In this document: piece by piece, positions 13,741 to 29,681 of the stretch
Layout of the letters: each line of letters begins with the position of its first letter
Position numbering within the stretch: the first letter of the stretch is position 1
Source of the DNA: a virus
DNA: 64,000 nt
IMG/VR virus record: IMGVR_UViG_3300044691_000566
Span: 32,001 to 96,000 of that record
Reading direction: 5' to 3' (one strand)
Program-made: the position numbers and the translations under genes
Notes under the pieces: model-generated
Databases searched by the model: none
The model's input: the letters and a program-made list of their open reading frames with translations, nothing else
What the model was told of the DNA's origin: nothing

Positions 13741-14193
13741 ATGAACAAGACCGCACTGACCATTGCCGCCACCCTGGCGTCCACGCTGGGCGGCATAGCT
13801 CTGGCGCCCCAGGCGCACGCCATGACCACCACGCTGGAGTCCAGGGCTTTCGGCGTGGCCCTGAGCAAACAGGGCGACCCGTACGTCTACGGGGCTGCGG
13901 GACCCAACGCCTTCGACTGCTCGGGCCTGACCTCGTACTCCTACAAGCGGGCGGGCAAGGCCATCCTGCGTACGGCGCAGGCCCAGTTCAACCACGTGCG
14001 GCACATCTTCTACAACCAGATGCGGCCGGGGGACCTGGTGTTCTTCGGGGGCGTGCGCTCGATATACCACGTGGGCCTCTACGCGGGCGGTGGCAAGATC
14101 ATCAACGCCAACACCGGCCACTACCGGGGGCGCAGGGTCGTGATCGCCCCCATCTCCGAGTACACCGGCACCCGCCACTACGGCCGGGTCTGA
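13741..14193 (+). CDS. secreted NlpC/P60 (C40) peptidoglycan peptidase
   Basis: Signal peptide ending AHA; GDPYVYGAAGPNAFDCSGL, PGDLVFF, HVGLY. Confidence 0.92.
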   Translation: MNKTALTIAATLASTLGGIALAPQAHAMTTTLESRAFGVALSKQGDPYVYGAAGPNAFDCSGLTSYSYKRAGKAILRTAQAQFNHVRHIFYNQMRPGDLVFFGGVRSIYHVGLYAGGGKIINANTGHYRGRRVVIAPISEYTGTRHYGRV

Positions 14194-14214: not shown

Positions 14215-14508
14215 ATGAATCAGAAGAAGACGAGTGCGGCGGAGCAACTCGCCAAGCTCTTCCACGACTCCTACGAGGAGCTGGCGCCCTCCCACGGTTA
14301 CGAGACCCGCGAGGCGTCCCGCAAGCCGTGGGAGGGCGTCCCCGAGAACAACAGGTCCCTGATGGTCGCGGTGGCCCAGAAGATCCTGGACTCCCAGGAG
14401 GACTCCGAGGACCTCCGCAAGCTCCGGGCCCTGGAGACCGCCGGGGTGGACAACTGGGACGGCTACGCGTACGCCATGTCGATCATGGACGGGGATGACG
14501 AGTTCTGA
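14215..14508 (+). CDS. hypothetical protein
   Basis: C-terminal L.ALE.AGVDNWDGY..A motif common in phage proteins. Confidence 0.75.
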   Translation: MNQKKTSAAEQLAKLFHDSYEELAPSHGYETREASRKPWEGVPENNRSLMVAVAQKILDSQEDSEDLRKLRALETAGVDNWDGYAYAMSIMDGDDEF

Positions 14509-14693
14509 TGGCGACGCCCAACATGCCCGCCGAGGAGTGGCCCGACCTGTCCGGCGACGAGCTGCGGCAGGTCGGGGAGGTCCTGAGGGGCGCCGACTAC
14601 ATGCAGGCCCACGAGGACGACGGGACGCCGGTCCCCGATCCCCCCCAAGTAGCCCACAACCCGCCAGAGATCACCCGGGAGGGTGCCGTATGA
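14508..14693 (+). CDS. hypothetical protein
   Basis: Overlap coupling. Confidence 0.6.
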   Translation: MATPNMPAEEWPDLSGDELRQVGEVLRGADYMQAHEDDGTPVPDPPQVAHNPPEITREGAV

Positions 14694-15466
14694 CGATCAT
14701 GGACAAGTTCGTGGAGCTGAACTCCGCCACCAAGTACCCGAGCATCGAGACGTACCACGTGCTGGGGGAGCGGGGCGCCCTGACCGAGGACGTGGGCCCG
14801 TTCGCCGGATACGAGGGCGATGCGCTCTTCACCGAGAAGGTGAACGGCACCAACGGCCGCATAGTCCTCTTCCCCGACGGTGATTTCCTCATCGGCTCCC
14901 GCGAGGAGCTGTGGTACGCCGACGGCGACCGGATCATCAATCCCTCGTTCCGTCTCGTGGAGACGCTCAAGCCGGTGGCCGAGGGTCTGACGGGTGACGG
15001 CACTCAGCACATCTCCGTGTTCTTCTTCGAGGTCTACGGCCACCAGATCGGCTCGGCCGCCAAGCAGTACACGGGCGAGGGCAACGTGGGCTACCGCCTG
15101 TTCGACCTGGCGTACGTGCCCCTGGAGGTCCTGGAGCTGGACCGCGCGAGGATCGCCTCATGGCGGCAGCACGGCGGTCAGCAGTGGGCCACGGAGCCGG
15201 TGCTCCAGCGGGTGGTCCAGGCGGAGGGCCTGACCCTTGCGCCGCGTCTGGGGACTGTACAGGCCGATTCCCTGCCGACCTCCGTGGCGGGCATGTCCAA
15301 GTGGCTGGAGCAGGTGTCCCAGTCCCTGGTGGGCCTGGACGCCAAGGCGAAGGGTCGTTCGGAGGGCGTGGTGCTGCGGTCCCCGCAGCGCACGGTCATC
15401 GCCAAGGCCCGCTTCGAGGACTACGAGCGCACCCTGAACCCCCAGCCGCAGCGCAAGCAGCGGTAG
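14690..15466 (+). CDS. ATP-dependent RNA ligase family protein
   Basis: Motif I TEKVNGTN; FEVYG; RLFD; EGVVLR; IAKARFEDY. Confidence 0.8.
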   Translation: MTIMDKFVELNSATKYPSIETYHVLGERGALTEDVGPFAGYEGDALFTEKVNGTNGRIVLFPDGDFLIGSREELWYADGDRIINPSFRLVETLKPVAEGLTGDGTQHISVFFFEVYGHQIGSAAKQYTGEGNVGYRLFDLAYVPLEVLELDRARIASWRQHGGQQWATEPVLQRVVQAEGLTLAPRLGTVQADSLPTSVAGMSKWLEQVSQSLVGLDAKAKGRSEGVVLRSPQRTVIAKARFEDYERTLNPQPQRKQR

Positions 15467-15480
15467 CCGTCCCCGCCCCA

Positions 15481-15563
15481 CAGAGCCCCCAAGGGATTTT
15501 TAAATCCTTGGGGGCTCTGGTCTTGCGCTCCAACAATCCTGTGAGTAGTGTTGACTCTGTCAG
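15481..15563 (+). promoter_or_regulatory. hairpin with TTTTTAAA centre + early promoter + box
   Basis: CAGAGCCCCCAAGG.../CCTTGGGGGCTCTG; CTTGCG-CTCCAACAATCCTGTGAG-TAGTGT-TGACTCTGTCAG. Confidence 0.85.
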
Positions 15564-15591
15564 CACGGCAACGACTCCCCCGGAGGCCACC

Positions 15592-15849: not shown

Positions 15850-15920
15850 TCCTCCCGAGCCCCCGGCGAACAACCGGGGGCCGCTCCTGCTCCGCCCAAC
15901 TGACTCCCCAGGAGGCCCAC

Positions 15921-16970: not shown

Positions 16971-16974
16971 GGGG

Positions 16975-17016
16975 TTGACGCTCCAACAATCCTTGTAGTA
17001 GTCTTGACCCTGTCAG
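16975..17016 (+). promoter_or_regulatory. early promoter + box
   Basis: TTGACG-CTCCAACAATCCTTGTAG-TAGTCT-TGACCCTGTCAG. Confidence 0.85.
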
Positions 17017-17043
17017 CACCGAACGACTCCCCTGGAGGCCCAT

Positions 17044-17361
17044 ATGGCGCTCAAGCCCCTCTCCCGCAAGCTCGCCGAGCAGGCCCTCACCGCCGTCAAG
17101 GGCCAGTACAAGAGCTACATGGCGGACGGCGAGGAGTACGGCCCGAAGCTGGTCGAGGCGTGGGACGGCACCCACTGGGCGATCTGCTGGGACGAGGGCC
17201 CGTTCGAGTGGACGCTCAGCAGCCCCGAGGGCGGCATCGACAAGGACCTGTCGGCGATGATGGACCAGCTCGTGGAGACCCCCGCCGCTGAGGGCTTCCC
17301 CGAGGAGGTCTTCGCGGAGCCCTACTGTGGCTCGGTGCTGTGCCTGTACCCCAGCTCCTGA
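17044..17361 (+). CDS. hypothetical protein
   Basis: I.W..GPFEW...VFAEPY...L.LYP. Confidence 0.8.
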   Translation: MALKPLSRKLAEQALTAVKGQYKSYMADGEEYGPKLVEAWDGTHWAICWDEGPFEWTLSSPEGGIDKDLSAMMDQLVETPAAEGFPEEVFAEPYCGSVLCLYPSS

Positions 17362-17399
17362 GCACCACAGCCCGCCGGAGCTGCGATCCCGGCACCCAA

Positions 17400-17480
17400 T
17401 TCCCGGTCGTCTACTTGGTGAAGACGCTCCGTCGGGCCGCACCCGGGGGAGGGACGCTGGTTCGACTCCGGCACGGGAAG
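17400..17480 (+). ncRNA. tRNA-like RNA (Gln-type body) with extended, non-canonical anticodon arm
   Basis: Acceptor TTCCCG/CGGGAA; D arm GTCT-ACTTGGTGA-AGAC; T arm GCTGG-TTCGACT-CCGGC; long stem closed by CCGCA in place of the anticodon arm. Confidence 0.75.
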
Positions 17481-17512
17481 CGCCAGAGAACACCCGAGCA
17501 CAGGGAGCCCAT

Positions 17513-17830
17513 ATGCCCATGTTCAAGATCCAGCCCGCCTCGCGGATCGACAACCTCACGGCCCACGGCGATGTGGGGCTCCAGCGTCCGTACCCCGTCT
17601 ACGCCGACAACAAGGGCAACGTGGAGTTCCAGCGCTCCTTCCGGGGCCGGGTGACCCGCGTCGTGGGCTTCCAGAAGGACCTGGCCGTCCAGCAGATCGA
17701 CCTGTCGTGGAGCGAGGCCCAGAAGAACCCGGACAAGGTCGTGGGCATGTACCTGGTCACGGCCGACAGCAAGGGTGACCTCGGCGTGCACGACACCGCC
17801 GTGGAGACCTTCGAGGAGGTGGTGCTGTGA
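17513..17830 (+). CDS. hypothetical protein
   Basis: GGGAG RBS directly after the tRNA-like element. Confidence 0.8.
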   Translation: MPMFKIQPASRIDNLTAHGDVGLQRPYPVYADNKGNVEFQRSFRGRVTRVVGFQKDLAVQQIDLSWSEAQKNPDKVVGMYLVTADSKGDLGVHDTAVETFEEVVL

Positions 17831-18342
17831 GCATCGACAGAGTCCAGGTCGGCCGGATCTTCCGGCACAAGGCGGACGGCCGCCGCTACGTGCGAATCGA
17901 CCGCCTCTTCGATTCGCTCGATCAGCCGCCGGTCCCGGGCGTCTCGTTCGCCATCTGGGATCTCCGGGAGGGGGTGAGAGCGAAGTGGGAGGAGTTCTCC
18001 GTCCTGCCGGTTGCCATGTTCAATGAGCAGTACCGGTACGCGGCGCAGTTCTTCGAGAACCAGCAGGCCGAGATGGCCGAGGCCACCGCGATGCGCGAGA
18101 AGCTCCAGGCGGACATCGAAGCCGCCCTGGAGGCCGTCGGAGCCCAGGACCCGGCCGCCGTGGCCGGGCTGTTCGTCCGCCTGGTGCAGAACGAGTGCGC
18201 CCACCGTATCTACACCCACGACGGGTTCAAGGAGGGGTGTGCCGCAGGCTGCTGCGACTCCACCACGGACGACGCGGCCGAAGTGATCGAGGTGGAGATC
18301 ACCGACGCGGAGCGCGAGGAGCTGCTCGGGGAGAGCGCTTGA
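17827..18342 (+). CDS. hypothetical protein
   Basis: GTGA overlap. Confidence 0.75.
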   Translation: MSIDRVQVGRIFRHKADGRRYVRIDRLFDSLDQPPVPGVSFAIWDLREGVRAKWEEFSVLPVAMFNEQYRYAAQFFENQQAEMAEATAMREKLQADIEAALEAVGAQDPAAVAGLFVRLVQNECAHRIYTHDGFKEGCAAGCCDSTTDDAAEVIEVEITDAEREELLGESA

Positions 18343-18380
18343 CGCTCCAACAATCCTTGTAGTAGTCTTGACTCTGTCAG
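18339..18380 (+). promoter_or_regulatory. early promoter + box
   Basis: TTGACG-CTCCAACAATCCTTGTAG-TAGTCT-TGACTCTGTCAG. Confidence 0.85.
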
Positions 18381-18408
18381 CACGACGACGACTCCTCAGG
18401 AGGCCCAC

Positions 18409-19266
18409 ATGGCCCGTACCCGCGAAGACCTCATCGCCCAGGTGCTCAAGCTCAACGAGATGGCCAACCGCTCCAGCGAGGCCGACGATGCCGACGACGA
18501 CAACGGTGTGGCCCACGCCGAGATCGTGGACAACGCGACCCGCAAGGCGGCCAAGATCATGCGGCGCCACCAGATCACCGAGGCCGAGATCGGCCAGGCG
18601 CAGGCCGCCAAGGACGAGGAGTTCGTCCACTTCACGTTCTCGGTGCGCAACACCTACGGGCTGGGCAAGGAGCGCTCCACCGCCCTCCACCACGCCGTGA
18701 TCGTCCCCTTCGGCGGCAACTCGATGCGGACCGTCTACAAGTCGGCCAAGTCCGACACGGAGATGACCGTTTTCGCCCCGGCCAGCATCGCCGAGATGCT
18801 CAAGTCGCTGCTGTACAGCATCTCCCTCCAGATGGAGGAGGGCCTGAGGTCGGCGAGCAAGGGCGAGCGCCAGCGGATCGACGAGTCGGTCTTCTCCTGG
18901 ACCCAGGCGGAGATCAACAAGCAGGTCCTGCTCTTCCGCCGGGGCTACCTGCGGGGCTTCGCCTCCACGGTGGGCTCGCGCATCAAGGCCGCCCAGGACG
19001 AGGCCATGGAGGAGATCAAGCGGGAGCTGGAGGCCGAGGGCCGCTCGGTGTCGGCGGGCACGGAGATCGCCCTGTACGACTCCAGCAGGAAGGCGGGCGA
19101 CTTCATGAACGCCTGGTACACCGGTACCAGCGGCGGCGGGAAGCTCCGCAAGACGTCCAACCGCGCCCGGTCGTCGAGCAAGGGCATCGAGGCCGGGGCG
19201 CGGGACGGCCGCCGGGCCGACATCACCCCGCCCAGGACCGACCCGAACCGCCGCTCGTTGGTCTGA
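18409..19266 (+). CDS. DUF2786-like domain protein
   Basis: N-terminal I..V.KL..MA...A..KA.KIM.RH.I; FRRGYL.GFA..V..R. Confidence 0.7.
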   Translation: MARTREDLIAQVLKLNEMANRSSEADDADDDNGVAHAEIVDNATRKAAKIMRRHQITEAEIGQAQAAKDEEFVHFTFSVRNTYGLGKERSTALHHAVIVPFGGNSMRTVYKSAKSDTEMTVFAPASIAEMLKSLLYSISLQMEEGLRSASKGERQRIDESVFSWTQAEINKQVLLFRRGYLRGFASTVGSRIKAAQDEAMEEIKRELEAEGRSVSAGTEIALYDSSRKAGDFMNAWYTGTSGGGKLRKTSNRARSSSKGIEAGARDGRRADITPPRTDPNRRSLV

Positions 19267-19305
19267 TGGAGGACGGCCCGCCGGGAGCCGTAATCCCGGC
19301 ACCAT

Positions 19306-19384
19306 GCCCCTGTAGCTCAATAGGCAGAGCGACCGACGCCCTCGGGCAGTCGGGACGATGCGGGTTCGAGTCCCGTCGAGGGCA
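19306..19384 (+). ncRNA. tRNA-like RNA (Phe-type body) with anticodon loop replaced by a hairpin
   Basis: GCCCCTG-TA-GCTC-AATAGGCA-GAGC...CCGAC-GCCCTCGGGC-A-GTCGG...GCGGG-TTCGAGT-CCCGT-CGAGGGC-A. Confidence 0.8.
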
Positions 19385-19413
19385 CGCCAGAGAATCAACC
19401 CGAGGAGGACCGT

Positions 19414-19767
19414 ATGGGACGGATCAAGCCGAGCAGGTCCAGGCGCATTCGCCCGCAGGACGTCGAGACGGTGGAGGATCTGTACGCGGGGCTCAACCAG
19501 GTCGCGGAACAGGCCCTGGACAAGCTCTCCGGGCGCCTGCTGGCCGCCGGGGCGTCCCCGGAGGACGTGGCGGCCCACTACGACGCCGTGAGGGCGCAGG
19601 CGGCCATGTACGTGCTCCAGATGGACCTGATGTCGTTCATCGACACGCGGCCCGACGCCGGGATCCAGCAGATCATCTTCGACGAGCTGATGAAGGACAT
19701 CAATCCGGTGGAGGCGCTGGCCATCGGTCTGCCGGACGCCGAGGACAACCCGACGGAAGAGGTCTGA
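19414..19767 (+). CDS. hypothetical protein
   Basis: GAGGAGG RBS directly after the tRNA-like element. Confidence 0.75.
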   Translation: MGRIKPSRSRRIRPQDVETVEDLYAGLNQVAEQALDKLSGRLLAAGASPEDVAAHYDAVRAQAAMYVLQMDLMSFIDTRPDAGIQQIIFDELMKDINPVEALAIGLPDAEDNPTEEV

Positions 19768-19768
19768 C

Positions 19769-20212
19769 ATGGGTGCATGGGGTACCGCCGTCTTCGACAA
19801 CGACAACGCCGCCGACTTTGCGGGGTCCCTGGAGTACTGCTCCACGACCGAAGCCCGCACCGACCTGCTGACCGCAACGCTGCGGGCGCTCATCGAGCTG
19901 GAGGACACGGAGCGCTGGCTCATGGCCGGGGACTTCGAGTTCCCCTACGAGATCGAGCACGCGCTGGCCGCTGCGGCCTTTGTGGCCGACCGCAAGAACG
20001 GCCGGGAGGAGTTCATCAACGTCTCCTACGCGCAGGGCCACGACAGGGAGACGGACACCTGGTACACCATCCCCCTGGACGAGCCCACCCCGACCCTGAT
20101 CAACGACGCCCTGACCGCCGTGGAGAAGATCCTGCGGCAGATGGAGGCCGACAAGGTCGAGGACGAGTGGCAGGCGAGCGCCCGTAAGATCTTCGCGGCT
20201 CTCCTCGCATAA
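19769..20212 (+). CDS. DUF4259-like protein
   Basis: MGAWG...FDND.A.DF N-terminal signature. Confidence 0.75.
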   Translation: MGAWGTAVFDNDNAADFAGSLEYCSTTEARTDLLTATLRALIELEDTERWLMAGDFEFPYEIEHALAAAAFVADRKNGREEFINVSYAQGHDRETDTWYTIPLDEPTPTLINDALTAVEKILRQMEADKVEDEWQASARKIFAALLA

Positions 20213-20216
20213 CCCC

Positions 20217-20258
20217 TTGACACTCCAACAATCCTTGGGGTAGTGTTGACCTTGTCAA
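20217..20258 (+). promoter_or_regulatory. early promoter + box driving the RNA cluster
   Basis: TTGACA-CTCCAACAATCCTTGGGG-TAGTGT-TGACCTTGTCAA. Confidence 0.85.
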
Positions 20259-20373
20259 GACGACGCGGTAGCGTCACTCAGCTCGTCCGAGAGACATCCG
20301 TGAACGAGCGGGGCGGAGGACGGGAGTGGGGGGACTGATCATCCCCCGATCCCTCTTCGCGGCCCTAGTACGG

Positions 20374-20447
20374 TCCTCCATAGCTCAGTTGGCCAGAGCA
20401 GTGCACTGTTAATGCACGGGTCGCAGGTTCGAGTCCTGCTGGAGGAG
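20374..20447 (+). tRNA. tRNA-Asn(GTT)
   Basis: Full cloverleaf; anticodon arm GTGCA-CTGTTAA-TGCAC. Confidence 0.95.
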
Positions 20448-20539
20448 CGGGGTACTGCGCAGTAACCGGCTGCTGGCCGGAAGTACCTTAGCCGGGTCTG
20501 TCCGTCATCCCGGGTGCACGAAAGACGGATGCACGATGG

Positions 20540-20608
20540 TCCTCCGTAGCTCAGTGGCCAGAGCGGGCCCGAAGGGGATGCGCGCGGGTTCAACTCCCGC
20601 CGGAGGAT
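20540..20608 (+). ncRNA. tRNA-like RNA (Asn-type body) with truncated anticodon arm
   Basis: Intact acceptor TCCTCCG/CGGAGGA, D arm and T arm; anticodon arm reduced to CCC-GAA-GGG. Confidence 0.75.
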
Positions 20609-20674
20609 CTTGCACGGCCCTGGGTAGGGGCTACCGAACCGGTTTGACCCACCGTACGTGCGAAACGGGTCGCT

Positions 20675-20749
20675 GCCCCTGTAGCTCAGTTTGGCAAGAG
20701 CGCTCGTCTGAAACACGAGAGGTCGCTGGTTCGATTCCAGCCGGGGGCA
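20675..20749 (+). tRNA. tRNA-Phe(GAA)
   Basis: Full cloverleaf; CTCGT-CTGAAAC-ACGAG. Confidence 0.95.
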
Positions 20750-20880
20750 CGCTAGGGACCCACCAGCTTGGTTATCGGATGGGCGCAGATAGAGAGTTGC
20801 CGTCAGATGAAGGTCGGCATCCACTCGCTGCCCGATGTGGGAGCAGAACGGCTAATCACCGTGGACAAGACCAAGCACAT

Positions 20881-20953
20881 GCCCCCGTAGCCCAACGGCT
20901 GAGGCCCCGGCTTCAAACACCGGAAGATGTGGGTTCGAATCCCACCGGGGGTA
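20881..20953 (+). tRNA. tRNA-Leu(CAA), short variable arm
   Basis: Cloverleaf; CCGGC-TTCAAAC-ACCGG with a C31-A39 mismatch; discriminator A. Confidence 0.75.
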
Positions 20954-20959
20954 CGCAAG

Positions 20960-21112
20960 TTCGAGGACTGAGTGGTGAGCGTAGGCCGGTTCAACTCCGG
21001 CCGTCCCGAGGGCTCGGGTGTGGGGTTCGATTCCCCTTGACCATGGTGGCGAACAGGGATCGCGGCGTCAGTGCCGTGCCCGCGCAGAGGGGTTCGACTC
21101 CCTTCCGGTCCA
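20960..21112 (+). ncRNA. degenerate tRNA-like modules (three T arms)
   Basis: GCCGG-TTCAACT-CCGGC, GGGG-TTCGATT-CCCC and AGGGG-TTCGACT-CCCTT without canonical anticodon arms. Confidence 0.6.
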
Positions 21113-21268
21113 CGGCGGTGCCAGTGGAGACGACAGCCGACTCCACACGGGTACGGAGAGGCCAACTGGGGTGATCCGCGTGGCGGCGCTCCCCCAGCAA
21201 GATCTCCGTGCGGACGAGGCCATACGTCCCCCGCACCTTTTTAAAATCTCGACTCCCCAGGAGGCGCC

Positions 21269-21484
21269 ATGGTTGTACCGACCCCCGAACGCGGCGAGTA
21301 CACGGAGCTGGCCGAACGGCTCATCGAGGAGATCGAGATGGCGACCGTCGCCGAGGTGGTGCTGCTCCGCAAGCGCATCGACGGAGCCCTGGCCTACCTG
21401 GACGAGGTGGTCACGCCCAACCAGATCACGCTGCGGCACATTCGTCGGCACCTGGACGGCGGCTACGACGGGATGCCGGGCTGA
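21269..21484 (+). CDS. hypothetical protein
   Basis: Conserved GACTCCCCAGGAGG leader. Confidence 0.75.
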   Translation: MVVPTPERGEYTELAERLIEEIEMATVAEVVLLRKRIDGALAYLDEVVTPNQITLRHIRRHLDGGYDGMPG

Positions 21485-21690
21485 TACCCCGCCACAACCC
21501 CACCGCCTTCTGGATTCTGCTGGCGGTGGGGCTCGACATCATGCTGGCCCTGCTGATCTGGGAGATCGTGCGATGACCACTGAATTACCTGAGCCCACCG
21601 ACCCCGATGAGGGCATTTCGACCACCTGGGACCACCACCCGGTCACCGGGTGGGAGCAGGTCGGCACCTTCGACCCCGACGAGGAGACCG

Positions 21691-21864
21691 ATGGTGGGAC
21701 GCCGTAGGCGCATATATCTGCGGGTGCTGCGGGTGATCCGCAAGCCCTTCTGGTACCCGCGCTGCCTCCACCTGTCCCACCGGCTGCTTCTGCCGTGCTG
21801 GCGTGCGCAGATCTGGGATTCCTACTGCCCCCACCACAACGACACCTGCTGGGGGAGATGCTGA
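21691..21864 (+). CDS. small Cys/His protein
   Basis: C.HLSHRL.LPCWR motif repeated in the next gene. Confidence 0.6.
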   Translation: MVGRRRRIYLRVLRVIRKPFWYPRCLHLSHRLLLPCWRAQIWDSYCPHHNDTCWGRC

Positions 21865-29607: not shown

Positions 29608-29681
29608 CGCGCGGTGGAGCAGCTCGGTAGCTCGTTGGGCTCATAACCCAGAGGTCGCAGGTTCAAATCCTGTCTGCGCTA
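29608..29681 (+). tRNA. initiator tRNA-fMet(CAT)
   Basis: C1-T72 mismatch, GGG/CCC anticodon stem, CTCATAA loop; own promoter TTGACC(29571)...TAGCGT and downstream terminator. Confidence 0.95.

Follow-up and report, generated by a model that had tools for sequence, protein, structure and literature searches.

Pseudoknot-linked tRNA-like elements without an anticodon loop in a soil actinobacterial phage

We analyzed a 64,000-nucleotide stretch of DNA ("the window"), bases 32001-96000 of a complete 159,746-bp IMG/VR virus (IMGVR_UViG_3300044691_000566) with direct terminal repeats and 66% G+C; the source is a soil actinobacterial phage of 160 kb. An earlier note on this DNA had described, at 17.4-21.1 kb, a single family of tRNA mimics without a decodable anticodon. 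Two tRNA-like elements of this region (E1 and E2) lie between genes, each preceded by an H-type pseudoknot (PK) that the note had missed; further 3′, a tRNA operon carries a third tRNA-like body (E3) and a structured RNA with two domains (E4-d1 and E4-d2; Table 1). As E1/E2, E3, and E4 differ in context and history, the single-family idea does not hold.

Two intercistronic tRNA-like elements and their pseudoknots

Eight T-arm-like hairpins (5-bp stem plus TTCRANN loop) occur at 17.4-21.1 kb, with one more in the tRNA-Met at 29.66 kb; outside those sites, there are four on the same strand of the 160-kb genome and none on the opposite strand. The ordinary tRNAs called by ARAGORN and Rfam number four, i.e., the Asn, Phe, and CAA tRNAs of Table 1 and tRNA-Met at 29608.

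The unconstrained minimum-energy fold of E1 is a four-arm cloverleaf, with a 4-bp D stem accompanied by A14, G18G19, and A21, a T arm of GCUGG-UUCGACU-CCGGC, a single acceptor-stem mismatch (G7.A66), and, where an anticodon arm would stand, a 10-bp hairpin with a 5-nt loop. E1 is seen neither by ARAGORN nor by the Rfam tRNA family RF00005 (gathering threshold 29 bits), even in a permissive scan to E<=10. E2, which exceeds the gathering threshold, likewise pairs six of seven acceptor positions (mismatch C5.A68), and its anticodon arm is an 8-bp bulged hairpin with a CUCG tetraloop, aligned by Rfam as a 12-nt insert in place of 6 loop positions. E1, E2, and E3 all retain the T-loop, G53-C61, A14, G18G19, and A21 (i.e., the tertiary nucleotides of the D and T arms are present), and all lack the 5-bp anticodon stem with its 7-nt anticodon-presenting loop. 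The folds, together with the Rfam alignments of E2 and E3, thus bear out the earlier description of cloverleaves that keep acceptor, D, and T arms and have no 7-nt anticodon loop.

The parentage proposed for these bodies fared less well. E1 had been called Gln-like, yet its best match to any tRNA tested is 71%; E2 had been called Phe-like, which is accurate for its first 14 nt and its trailer, but the rest of E2 is unlike tRNA-Phe. Nor does ARAGORN return the pseudo or undetermined calls that had been anticipated: it reports E2 as tRNA-Gly(gcc), a forced-loop artefact, and miscalls of this kind by tRNA finders would distort phage tRNA counts. Folding-energy z-scores (-1.1 to -1.3) are not significant alone and are uninformative in this G+C-rich DNA; the support for the tRNA-like elements is their architecture, their conserved tertiary nucleotides, and the comparison with other contigs.

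Both E1 and E2 are flanked by same-strand open reading frames (ORFs) and have no promoter-like repeat of their own. They end 32 and 29 nt, respectively, 5′ of an ATG with a Shine-Dalgarno sequence, in agreement with the earlier observation that two copies stand before a ribosome-binding site. Upstream, PK2 begins 6 nt past a TGA stop codon (19264-19266), and the "TGA gcac(c/g)" lead-in also occurs in a related phage (G003, below) and in Streptomyces phage-plasmid contigs.

The hairpin 5′ of E1 and E2 is a pseudoknot: in each true copy, the first 4-5 loop nucleotides pair with a segment 1-2 nt 5′ of the stem, giving a fold of ~28 nt with a 5-bp stem S1, a 7-8-bp stem S2, a first loop of 1-2 nt, and a last loop of two purines. 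No S1 partner is present in eight matches to the hairpin pattern that arose by chance. S1 covaries among copies (ACGGC/GCCGU, CAGC/GCUG in E1, AGGGC/GCCCU, ACAGC/GCUGU, AGAGC/GCUCU, CUGC/GCAG), with 87% of cells paired over 25 copies and a covariation score of 0.244 vs. 0.055 for shuffled data (none of 500 shuffles reaches the observed value) and at most 0.074 for slid controls. Loop and closing pairs are conserved as GGGA-GCYSY-RA-UCCC. Phage copies start 5-6 nt after a stop codon (often TGA-GCACG) and end 3-9 nt before the 5′ end of the tRNA-like element. The sequence that follows is ACCA after PK2 and ACCCAA, UACAA, UCACA, AACGA, etc., elsewhere, i.e., CCA is not general. No family of Rfam release 15 matched the PK, and a generic pseudoknot scan over the phage genome gave only background level. 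The hairpin was also considered as an anticodon mimic, and this was rejected: its loop triplet equals the anticodon of the next tRNA in L031 and L043 (UCU) and in L040 (CGU), but not in nine other modules.

Table 1. Coordinates of the features discussed (window positions unless a contig is named).
Feature	Position	Strand	Remarks
PK1, H-type pseudoknot	17368..17393	+	S1a CAGC 17368-17371; S2a 17374-17379; S1b GCUG 17380-17383 in loop; S2b 17387-17393, one bulged C
PK2, H-type pseudoknot	19273..19300	+	S1a ACGGC 19273-19277; S2a GCCGGGA 19280-19286; S1b GCCGU 19287-19291; L3 AA; S2b UCCCGGC 19294-19300
E1 tRNA-like element	17400..17480	+	acceptor 6/7 bp, D arm, T arm, extended hairpin; minimum-energy fold
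E2 tRNA-like element	19306..19384	+	D/T arms intact, anticodon arm replaced; Rfam RF00005 45.5 bits; next ATG 19414
TGA stop of ORF 17044-17361	17359..17361	+	6 nt 5′ of PK1
Trailer CGCCAGAGAAC..., Shine-Dalgarno sequence, ATG (17513) of ORF 17513-17830	17481..17515	+	trailer common to E1, E2, and tRNA-Phe
E3, tRNA-Asn-like body	20540..20608	+	Rfam RF00005 42.1 bits; 13 nt replace the whole 17-nt anticodon arm
E4-d1, 148-nt tRNA-like RNA	20965..21112	+	conserved in five genomes; outer stem and T arms 1 and 3 vary with compensation
E4-d2, second structured domain, ~130 nt	21113..21245	+	invariant GAGGCCAACU and AAGAUC; terminator-like hairpin and T run at end
tRNA-Asn(GUU), genuine	20374..20448	+	parent-like copy of E3; ARAGORN, Rfam
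tRNA-Phe(GAA), genuine	20675..20750	+	5′ 14 nt and trailer resemble E2
tRNA with anticodon CAA (Leu codon UUG), 73 nt	20881..20954	+	class-I body, C31.A39 mismatch
Promoter-like 50-nt repeat (TTGAC.CTCCAACAATCCT....GTAGT..TTGAC)	15521-15570, 16974-17023, 18338-18387, 20216-20265	+ (20216 copy)	heads successive small operons
NlpC/P60 peptidase	13741-14193		first of upstream gene trio
Protein with T7 gp5.9-like RecBCD-inhibitor domain	14215-14508		upstream gene trio
RNA ligase, family PF09414, tRNA-repair type	14495-15466		upstream gene trio, 2 kb upstream
Rhodocyclaceae nusG-rplK spacer PK	L218-L242, e.g., L105:5112-5140		H-type, covarying S1; ~10 nt 5′ of canonical uL1 operator

Recurrence of the module and of the pseudoknot

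Sequence orthologues of E1 and E2 were not found by word, tblastn, or pattern searches: an exact-word locus search using a 285-aa protein, tblastn of two flanking proteins against GenBank phages, and a search of IMG/VR with the E1/E2 T arm plus trailer as a pattern each gave zero matches, and GenBank phages include no near relative of this phage (only tRNAs match, at 74-88%). The closest relative, G005, has flanking proteins 48-55% identical to those here. A related 156-kb phage, G003, was picked up via the common promoter repeat; its proteins are at most 31% identical, and the 4.5-kb region holds a single detectable homologous protein (31% identical).

Architecture recurs more widely. A pattern search of IMG/VR for the hairpin plus a T arm yielded 16 and later 45 loci, and ~25 IMG/VR contigs of 37-72% G+C carry a module of fixed order (stop codon, 5-6 nt, PK, 3-9 nt, tRNA or anticodon-less element, ~30 nt, ribosome-binding site). 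In G000 and in G003, both stem-forming copies of the PK core motif per genome sit just 5′ of a tRNA-like element. Some contigs couple the PK to a decodable tRNA (Arg-UCU, Thr-CGU, Glu-UUC, Gly-CCC, and the CAA tRNA of G005), others to an anticodon-less element, i.e., E1, E2, two elements of G003, one of G005, that of L085 (with a 3-nt loop), and that of a Streptomyces phage-plasmid family. The anticodon-less element of G005 (G005a) has a 50-nt insert in its D-loop and a 6-nt loop, and one of those in G003 (G003b) has no normal D arm; the only parts retained by all PK partners are the acceptor stem and the T arm. No PK accompanies those tRNAs of this phage that have a promoter to themselves, namely the cluster at 20216 and tRNA-Met, which also has a terminator. 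As a separate observation, a further genome, G004, holds within an 11-tRNA-gene cluster a 98-nt tRNA-like element (L025:15484-15581; acceptor 6/7 bp, T arm GCAGG-UUCGAUC-CCUGC) in which a long hairpin replaces both D and anticodon arms, and the same T arm is present in G003b (70.4 kb).

These comparisons bear on whether the elements are simply functionless duplicates of phage tRNA genes, decaying after chance indels struck the anticodon arm. Several features are such as decay would leave: the acceptor stem is mismatched once in both E1 and E2, E1 scores below the tRNA model of Rfam, our searches brought up no sequence orthologue of E1 or E2, and E3 is a near copy of the neighboring tRNA-Asn (80%, same acceptor stem) without an orthologue in the relatives found. 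However, the changes are confined to the anticodon arm, where they make longer, well-paired hairpins, and the other stems and the tertiary nucleotides are intact. Moreover, the same architecture stands behind the same PK in unrelated contigs. At the position of E1 (after the homologue of the 17044 ORF), G005 bears a PK and a different anticodon-less element whose stem sequences are entirely different, and thus the shape has been kept there and the sequence has not. The anticodon-less module family in Streptomyces phage-plasmids (ten contigs, ~79-99 kb; a long arm with a conserved GAACCUUGGUCGGUUCC hairpin at its tip) is strongly conserved: across nine contigs, mean identity is 82% in the module vs. 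55-58% in 300-nt flanks, which excludes random decay in that lineage. Many of these copies encode an NCCA end, and one copy lies on plasmid NZ_CP041606.1 of Streptomyces sp. S1D4-14, whose record annotates nothing there. The earlier preference for selection over random decay therefore stands, given the recurrence of PK-linked anticodon-less elements, the conservation of the module relative to its flanks in one lineage, and the compensatory changes of E4-d1 in five genomes. As a general account, decay is very improbable; it is credible for E3 only.

The PK is also found in bacteria. A genome scan for its core gave at least 120 matches, 105 of which, among the matches listed, have no stem; one match, inside domain III of an archaeal 23S rRNA, was set aside as a chance match. 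One Rhodocyclaceae genome carries a full copy, ACGGC-AA-GCCGGGA-GCCGU-GA-UCCCGGC, between nusG and rplK. Among 301 genomes of the same class, the exact core motif has four matches, three of them by chance. By our reading, at least 10 of the 23 distinct Rhodocyclaceae rplK leaders inspected have a similarly built PK immediately 3′ of the nusG stop codon, and its S1 covaries among them. Two further bacterial copies are intercistronic, after stop codons, and without a tRNA.

Such copies raise the prospect that the PK is the functional heart of the module, as a protein-binding operator or insulator and possibly as a pseudoknotted mimic of the site on 23S rRNA that ribosomal protein uL1 binds; it would then control or shield the region past the stop codon, with the tRNA-like element as one of several structured partners. 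The GGGAGCC...RAUCCC core does resemble the uL1 operator in the Escherichia coli rplK leader (GGGGAGCC...GUUAUUACCC), and the tRNA-free copies lie 4-5 nt past stop codons. The published uL1 operator is a 6-12-bp stem with an internal bulge (a G-A pair plus an unpaired A), placed before rplK or rplA (PMC3616713). Yet the canonical operator (GAG-GA-GCGCG...GUUACCA-CUC) stands apart from the PK, ~10 nt 3′ of it, in the rplK leaders, and the PK thus appears not to be the known operator. In addition, the exact phage-type core occurs at an rplK leader in only one of the 301 genomes, the strand topology is unlike that of solved uL1 sites, and the phage copies do not adjoin ribosomal genes. We therefore hold a PK-centered function to be distinctly unlikely. 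To judge from its sequence, the PK is found in cells as well as viruses and, despite its similarity to the known uL1 site, is a different element; the copies before rplKA appear to constitute a part of this ribosomal-protein operon leader that has not been described before.

The tRNA operon, E3, E4, and neighboring genes

A copy of the promoter-like repeat (at least 15 copies of which occur in G003) heads the tRNA operon at 20216-20265. E3 was seen in the permissive Rfam scan, is closest to tRNA-Asn (80%, same acceptor stem), as its earlier Asn-like label implied, and has neither a PK 5′ nor a ribosome-binding site 3′. It is best described as a truncated tRNA-Asn paralogue inside the tRNA operon, which may have no function of its own.

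E4 is different in kind. The "three more T arms" previously listed at 20960-21112 are not three remnants but internal hairpins of one conserved 148-nt RNA, E4-d1. In the consensus fold, 20965-20970 pair with 21106-21111 as a 6-bp outer stem, three pairs of which covary; this stem is stacked onto a 6-bp T arm (21087-21105), for 12 bp in total as in a tRNA minihelix. A D-loop-like AGUGGUGA is present, and an inner stem (GCGU/GCGC) surrounds four hairpins, two of which have T-loop-like loops. Beyond this phage, E4-d1 is found in G003, G004/L016, G005, and L047, and positions 20965-21245 align with G003 at 71%. Of the non-promoter DNA in the 4.5-kb region, only E4-d1 can still be aligned with that genome. 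E4-d2, with its invariant AAGAUC in an internal loop, is kept in four genomes and absent from G005, where the ribosome-binding site of the RNA ligase gene lies directly 3′ of E4-d1; E4-d2 had no Rfam match.

Two known RNA classes share parts of this plan. As in the tRNA-like domain of transfer-messenger RNA (tmRNA) and in the Y-RNA-like YrlA, an acceptor-like stem of E4-d1 stacks on a T arm, a D-loop-like GG segment stands without a D stem, and a large insert lies where the anticodon arm would be. It differs from tmRNA in that it has no G3.U70 (outer-stem position 3 is A3-U, G3-C, or A3.C) and no tag reading frame, and neither an ARAGORN tmRNA call nor an Rfam tmRNA match at E<=10 was obtained; tmRNA was rejected. 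YrlA/Ro60 was rejected as well: the RF02553 score of 24.5 bits, far under the gathering threshold of 69, overlaps tRNA(CAA), and the TROVE domain of Ro60 (PF05731) is absent from the complete phage genome. A 23-mer of E4 T arm 3 had zero matches in a genome scan, and in a metagenome scan it matched one unrelated low-G+C contig. In that marine contig (L018:400-540), the exact 23 nt lie in an apparent, odd tRNA-like RNA that ARAGORN does not call.

Several further observations concern the surroundings. The CAA tRNA, of uncertain amino-acid identity, has no long variable arm such as bacterial tRNA-Leu has; its homologue in G005 is intercistronic, with a PK directly 5′. Two long ORFs (20536-21174 and 21018-21707) span genuine tRNAs and were taken as high-G+C artefacts. 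A 5′-untranslated block, GACUCC-NN-AGGAGG, recurs at 15573-15587, 15902-15916, 17025-17039, 18390-18404, and 21251-21265; its Shine-Dalgarno sequence is complementary to the preceding CUCC, and it may form a small hairpin, common to many genes, that sequesters the ribosome-binding site. Finally, G003:C1:45780-46350 (+) [L021:5780-6350] and G001:C1:20750-21330 (-) [L028:750-1330] hold arrays in which tRNA genes look circularly permuted: anticodon-stem strand, T arm, and acceptor strand come first, as the 3′ half, and the 5′ half with acceptor strand, D arm, and anticodon-stem strand begins ~6 nt later. Copies of a GAUGCGAA..GCGGGUUCCUUC repeat lie scattered among them, and this phage has no counterpart.

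A possible role in mRNA processing, compared with known systems

The earlier note had offered two functions, decoys for tRNA-binding proteins or RNase P/Z processing signals that punctuate mRNA, and we favor the second for E1 and E2. Our leading but tentative interpretation, to which we assign a probability of roughly 45%, is that host RNase P and 3′ tRNA-processing enzymes cut polycistronic mRNA at elements of the E1/E2 type, with the PK capping the upstream 3′ end. From the structures, their conservation, the covariation, and the genetic context that we observed, we infer each of the following steps. E1 and E2 belong to a conserved intercistronic RNA module, and the cistrons on either side would share one transcript. 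RNase P and RNase Z recognize their substrates by acceptor stem and T arm, and since each element keeps this minihelix (here along with the D/T elbow), host RNase P could cut at its 5′ end. Host 3′ maturation enzymes (RNase Z or exonucleases, then the CCA enzyme) would trim the 3′ end and so split the mRNA. The PK would remain on the upstream message as a 3′-terminal cap with a 3-9-nt tail, where it should block 3′ exonucleases, and the downstream message would begin ~30 nt 5′ of its start codon. As decoding would be unneeded, the anticodon loop would be free for replacement by a stable hairpin. E4-d1, with the same acceptor/T-arm handle, would probably engage the same enzymes, which may release E4-d2 here and separate two genes in G005.

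What makes mRNA punctuation the best reading is a combination of four observations: the acceptor stem and T arm are what the partners have in common, elements of the E1/E2 type invariably lie between cistrons and in the same orientation as the neighboring genes, they are interchangeable with real tRNAs, and the spacing between PK and 5′ end is tight. Several points weigh against it. The PK loop and closing pairs are far more conserved, across 37-72% G+C, than a block to exonucleases needs, which suggests a specific binder. The same kind of PK occurs without a tRNA after nusG in Rhodocyclaceae rplK leaders and at two bacterial intercistronic sites, and its role is therefore not bound up with RNase P. 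A complete NCCA end is encoded in several of the anticodon-less elements, and E1-E3 retain the whole L-shape, which suggests that the excised RNA itself may matter. Furthermore, the acceptor stems of E1 and E2 both contain a mismatch, neither E3 nor the E4 of this phage is intercistronic, and the E4-d1 of G005 is intercistronic yet without a PK.

The excised RNAs could instead act in trans, in that they would titrate, as decoys or sponges lacking an anticodon, those host proteins which bind tRNA by its body or CCA end. We think this unlikely; candidate targets would be tRNA-targeting defence toxins, nucleotidyltransferase or pyrophosphokinase toxins, modification enzymes, and stress sensors. 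Without an anticodon loop, such decoys would be immune to anticodon nucleases and kept from decoding. The full L-shape and elbow nucleotides of E1-E3 suit this idea, as do the NCCA ends encoded in many Streptomyces phage-plasmid copies, the place of E3 and E4-d1 within a strongly promoted tRNA operon, the tRNA-repair-type RNA ligase 2 kb upstream (in G005, E4-d1 lies directly 5′ of that ligase gene), and the precedent of phage tRNAs that evolve against anticodon nucleases (PMC10264068). However, decoys would have to compete with all the tRNAs of the host, and neither E1 nor E2 has its own promoter; G003b and G005a have not kept D arm and elbow; the same module is occupied by decodable tRNAs; and a search of the phage for a tRNA-binding partner found no TROVE/Ro60, CCA-adding enzyme, or L1 homologue.

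A combined arrangement is also conceivable, if doubtful, in which PK and tRNA-like element form an undescribed two-part RNA device: the PK would recruit a host factor (uL1 or other) or shield the RNA that follows from terminating ribosomes, and the excised body would accumulate as a nuclease-proof mimic that titrates a tRNA-directed defence or sensor. Were this so, the phage would couple mRNA punctuation to counter-defence, by a device common to phages of very different G+C and with its PK half also in bacterial ribosomal-protein operons.

If the processing model is correct, phages punctuate and stabilize their mRNAs via the host tRNA-maturation machinery, and the PK would be a widely distributed RNA motif not recognized before, whose cellular counterpart lies between nusG and rplK. 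Punctuation of mRNA is a principle known from mitochondria and MALAT1, and we found no description of it for phages in the literature. At the 3′ end of MALAT1 and MEN-beta, a triple helix lies 5′ of mascRNA, and an RNase P cut between the two leaves a protected upstream 3′ end. Alike in both cases is a compact tertiary structure directly 5′ of a tRNA-like element without a normal anticodon loop; unlike the PK module, MALAT1 is a eukaryotic nuclear long noncoding RNA with a triple helix instead of an H-type pseudoknot. No homology is implied, and E2 scores 20.9 bits (E 0.84) against the Rfam mascRNA family, far under threshold. In plant mitochondria, t-elements are non-decoding, tRNA-like RNase P/RNase Z signals that make the 5′ and 3′ ends of mRNAs (Forner et al., 2007, PMC1920247). 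They resemble E1 and E2 as non-decoding tRNA-like folds that are embedded in mRNAs and retain the acceptor/T-arm part; they differ in that the elements here belong to a phage with a bacterial host, E1-E3 are full cloverleaves with a closed anticodon arm, a PK lies 5′, and processing is predicted from structure and context.

The operator through which uL1 autoregulates the rplKA (L11) operon (Fu et al., 2013, PMC3616713) shares with the PK a GGGAGCC core and a purine-A bulge beside a G-C-rich helix, but in its classical form it is a nested helix with an internal loop, and in Rhodocyclaceae it lies beside the PK and is not identical to it. Theta ribozymes, i.e., minimal ribozymes like that of hepatitis delta virus (HDV), are the one class of small RNA reported so far at the ends of phage tRNAs: they abut phage tRNAs, have been proposed to act in tRNA end maturation, and occur in phages enriched in RNA ligases (Kienbeck et al., 2024, PMC10879173). 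Like the PK, they are small pseudoknotted RNAs adjoining phage tRNA genes. Unlike it, they lie 3′ of the tRNA, cleave at the tRNA 3′ end, and have a nested P1-P1.1-P2-P3 HDV fold with a catalytic C in J4/2; the PK, which lies 5′ of a tRNA or tRNA-like element and has two stems only, with no P3/P4, was rejected as a ribozyme of this kind. Phage tRNAs with anticodon-loop changes, finally, evade anticodon nucleases (van den Berg et al., 2023, PMC10264068), and they too are tRNA bodies altered in the anticodon region in phages with RNA repair genes. They keep the 7-nt loop and still decode, whereas E1-E3 have no anticodon-presenting loop. Phage tRNA genes are usually read as codon supply or as a measure against nucleases; here, the tRNA shape has been conserved and decoding discarded.

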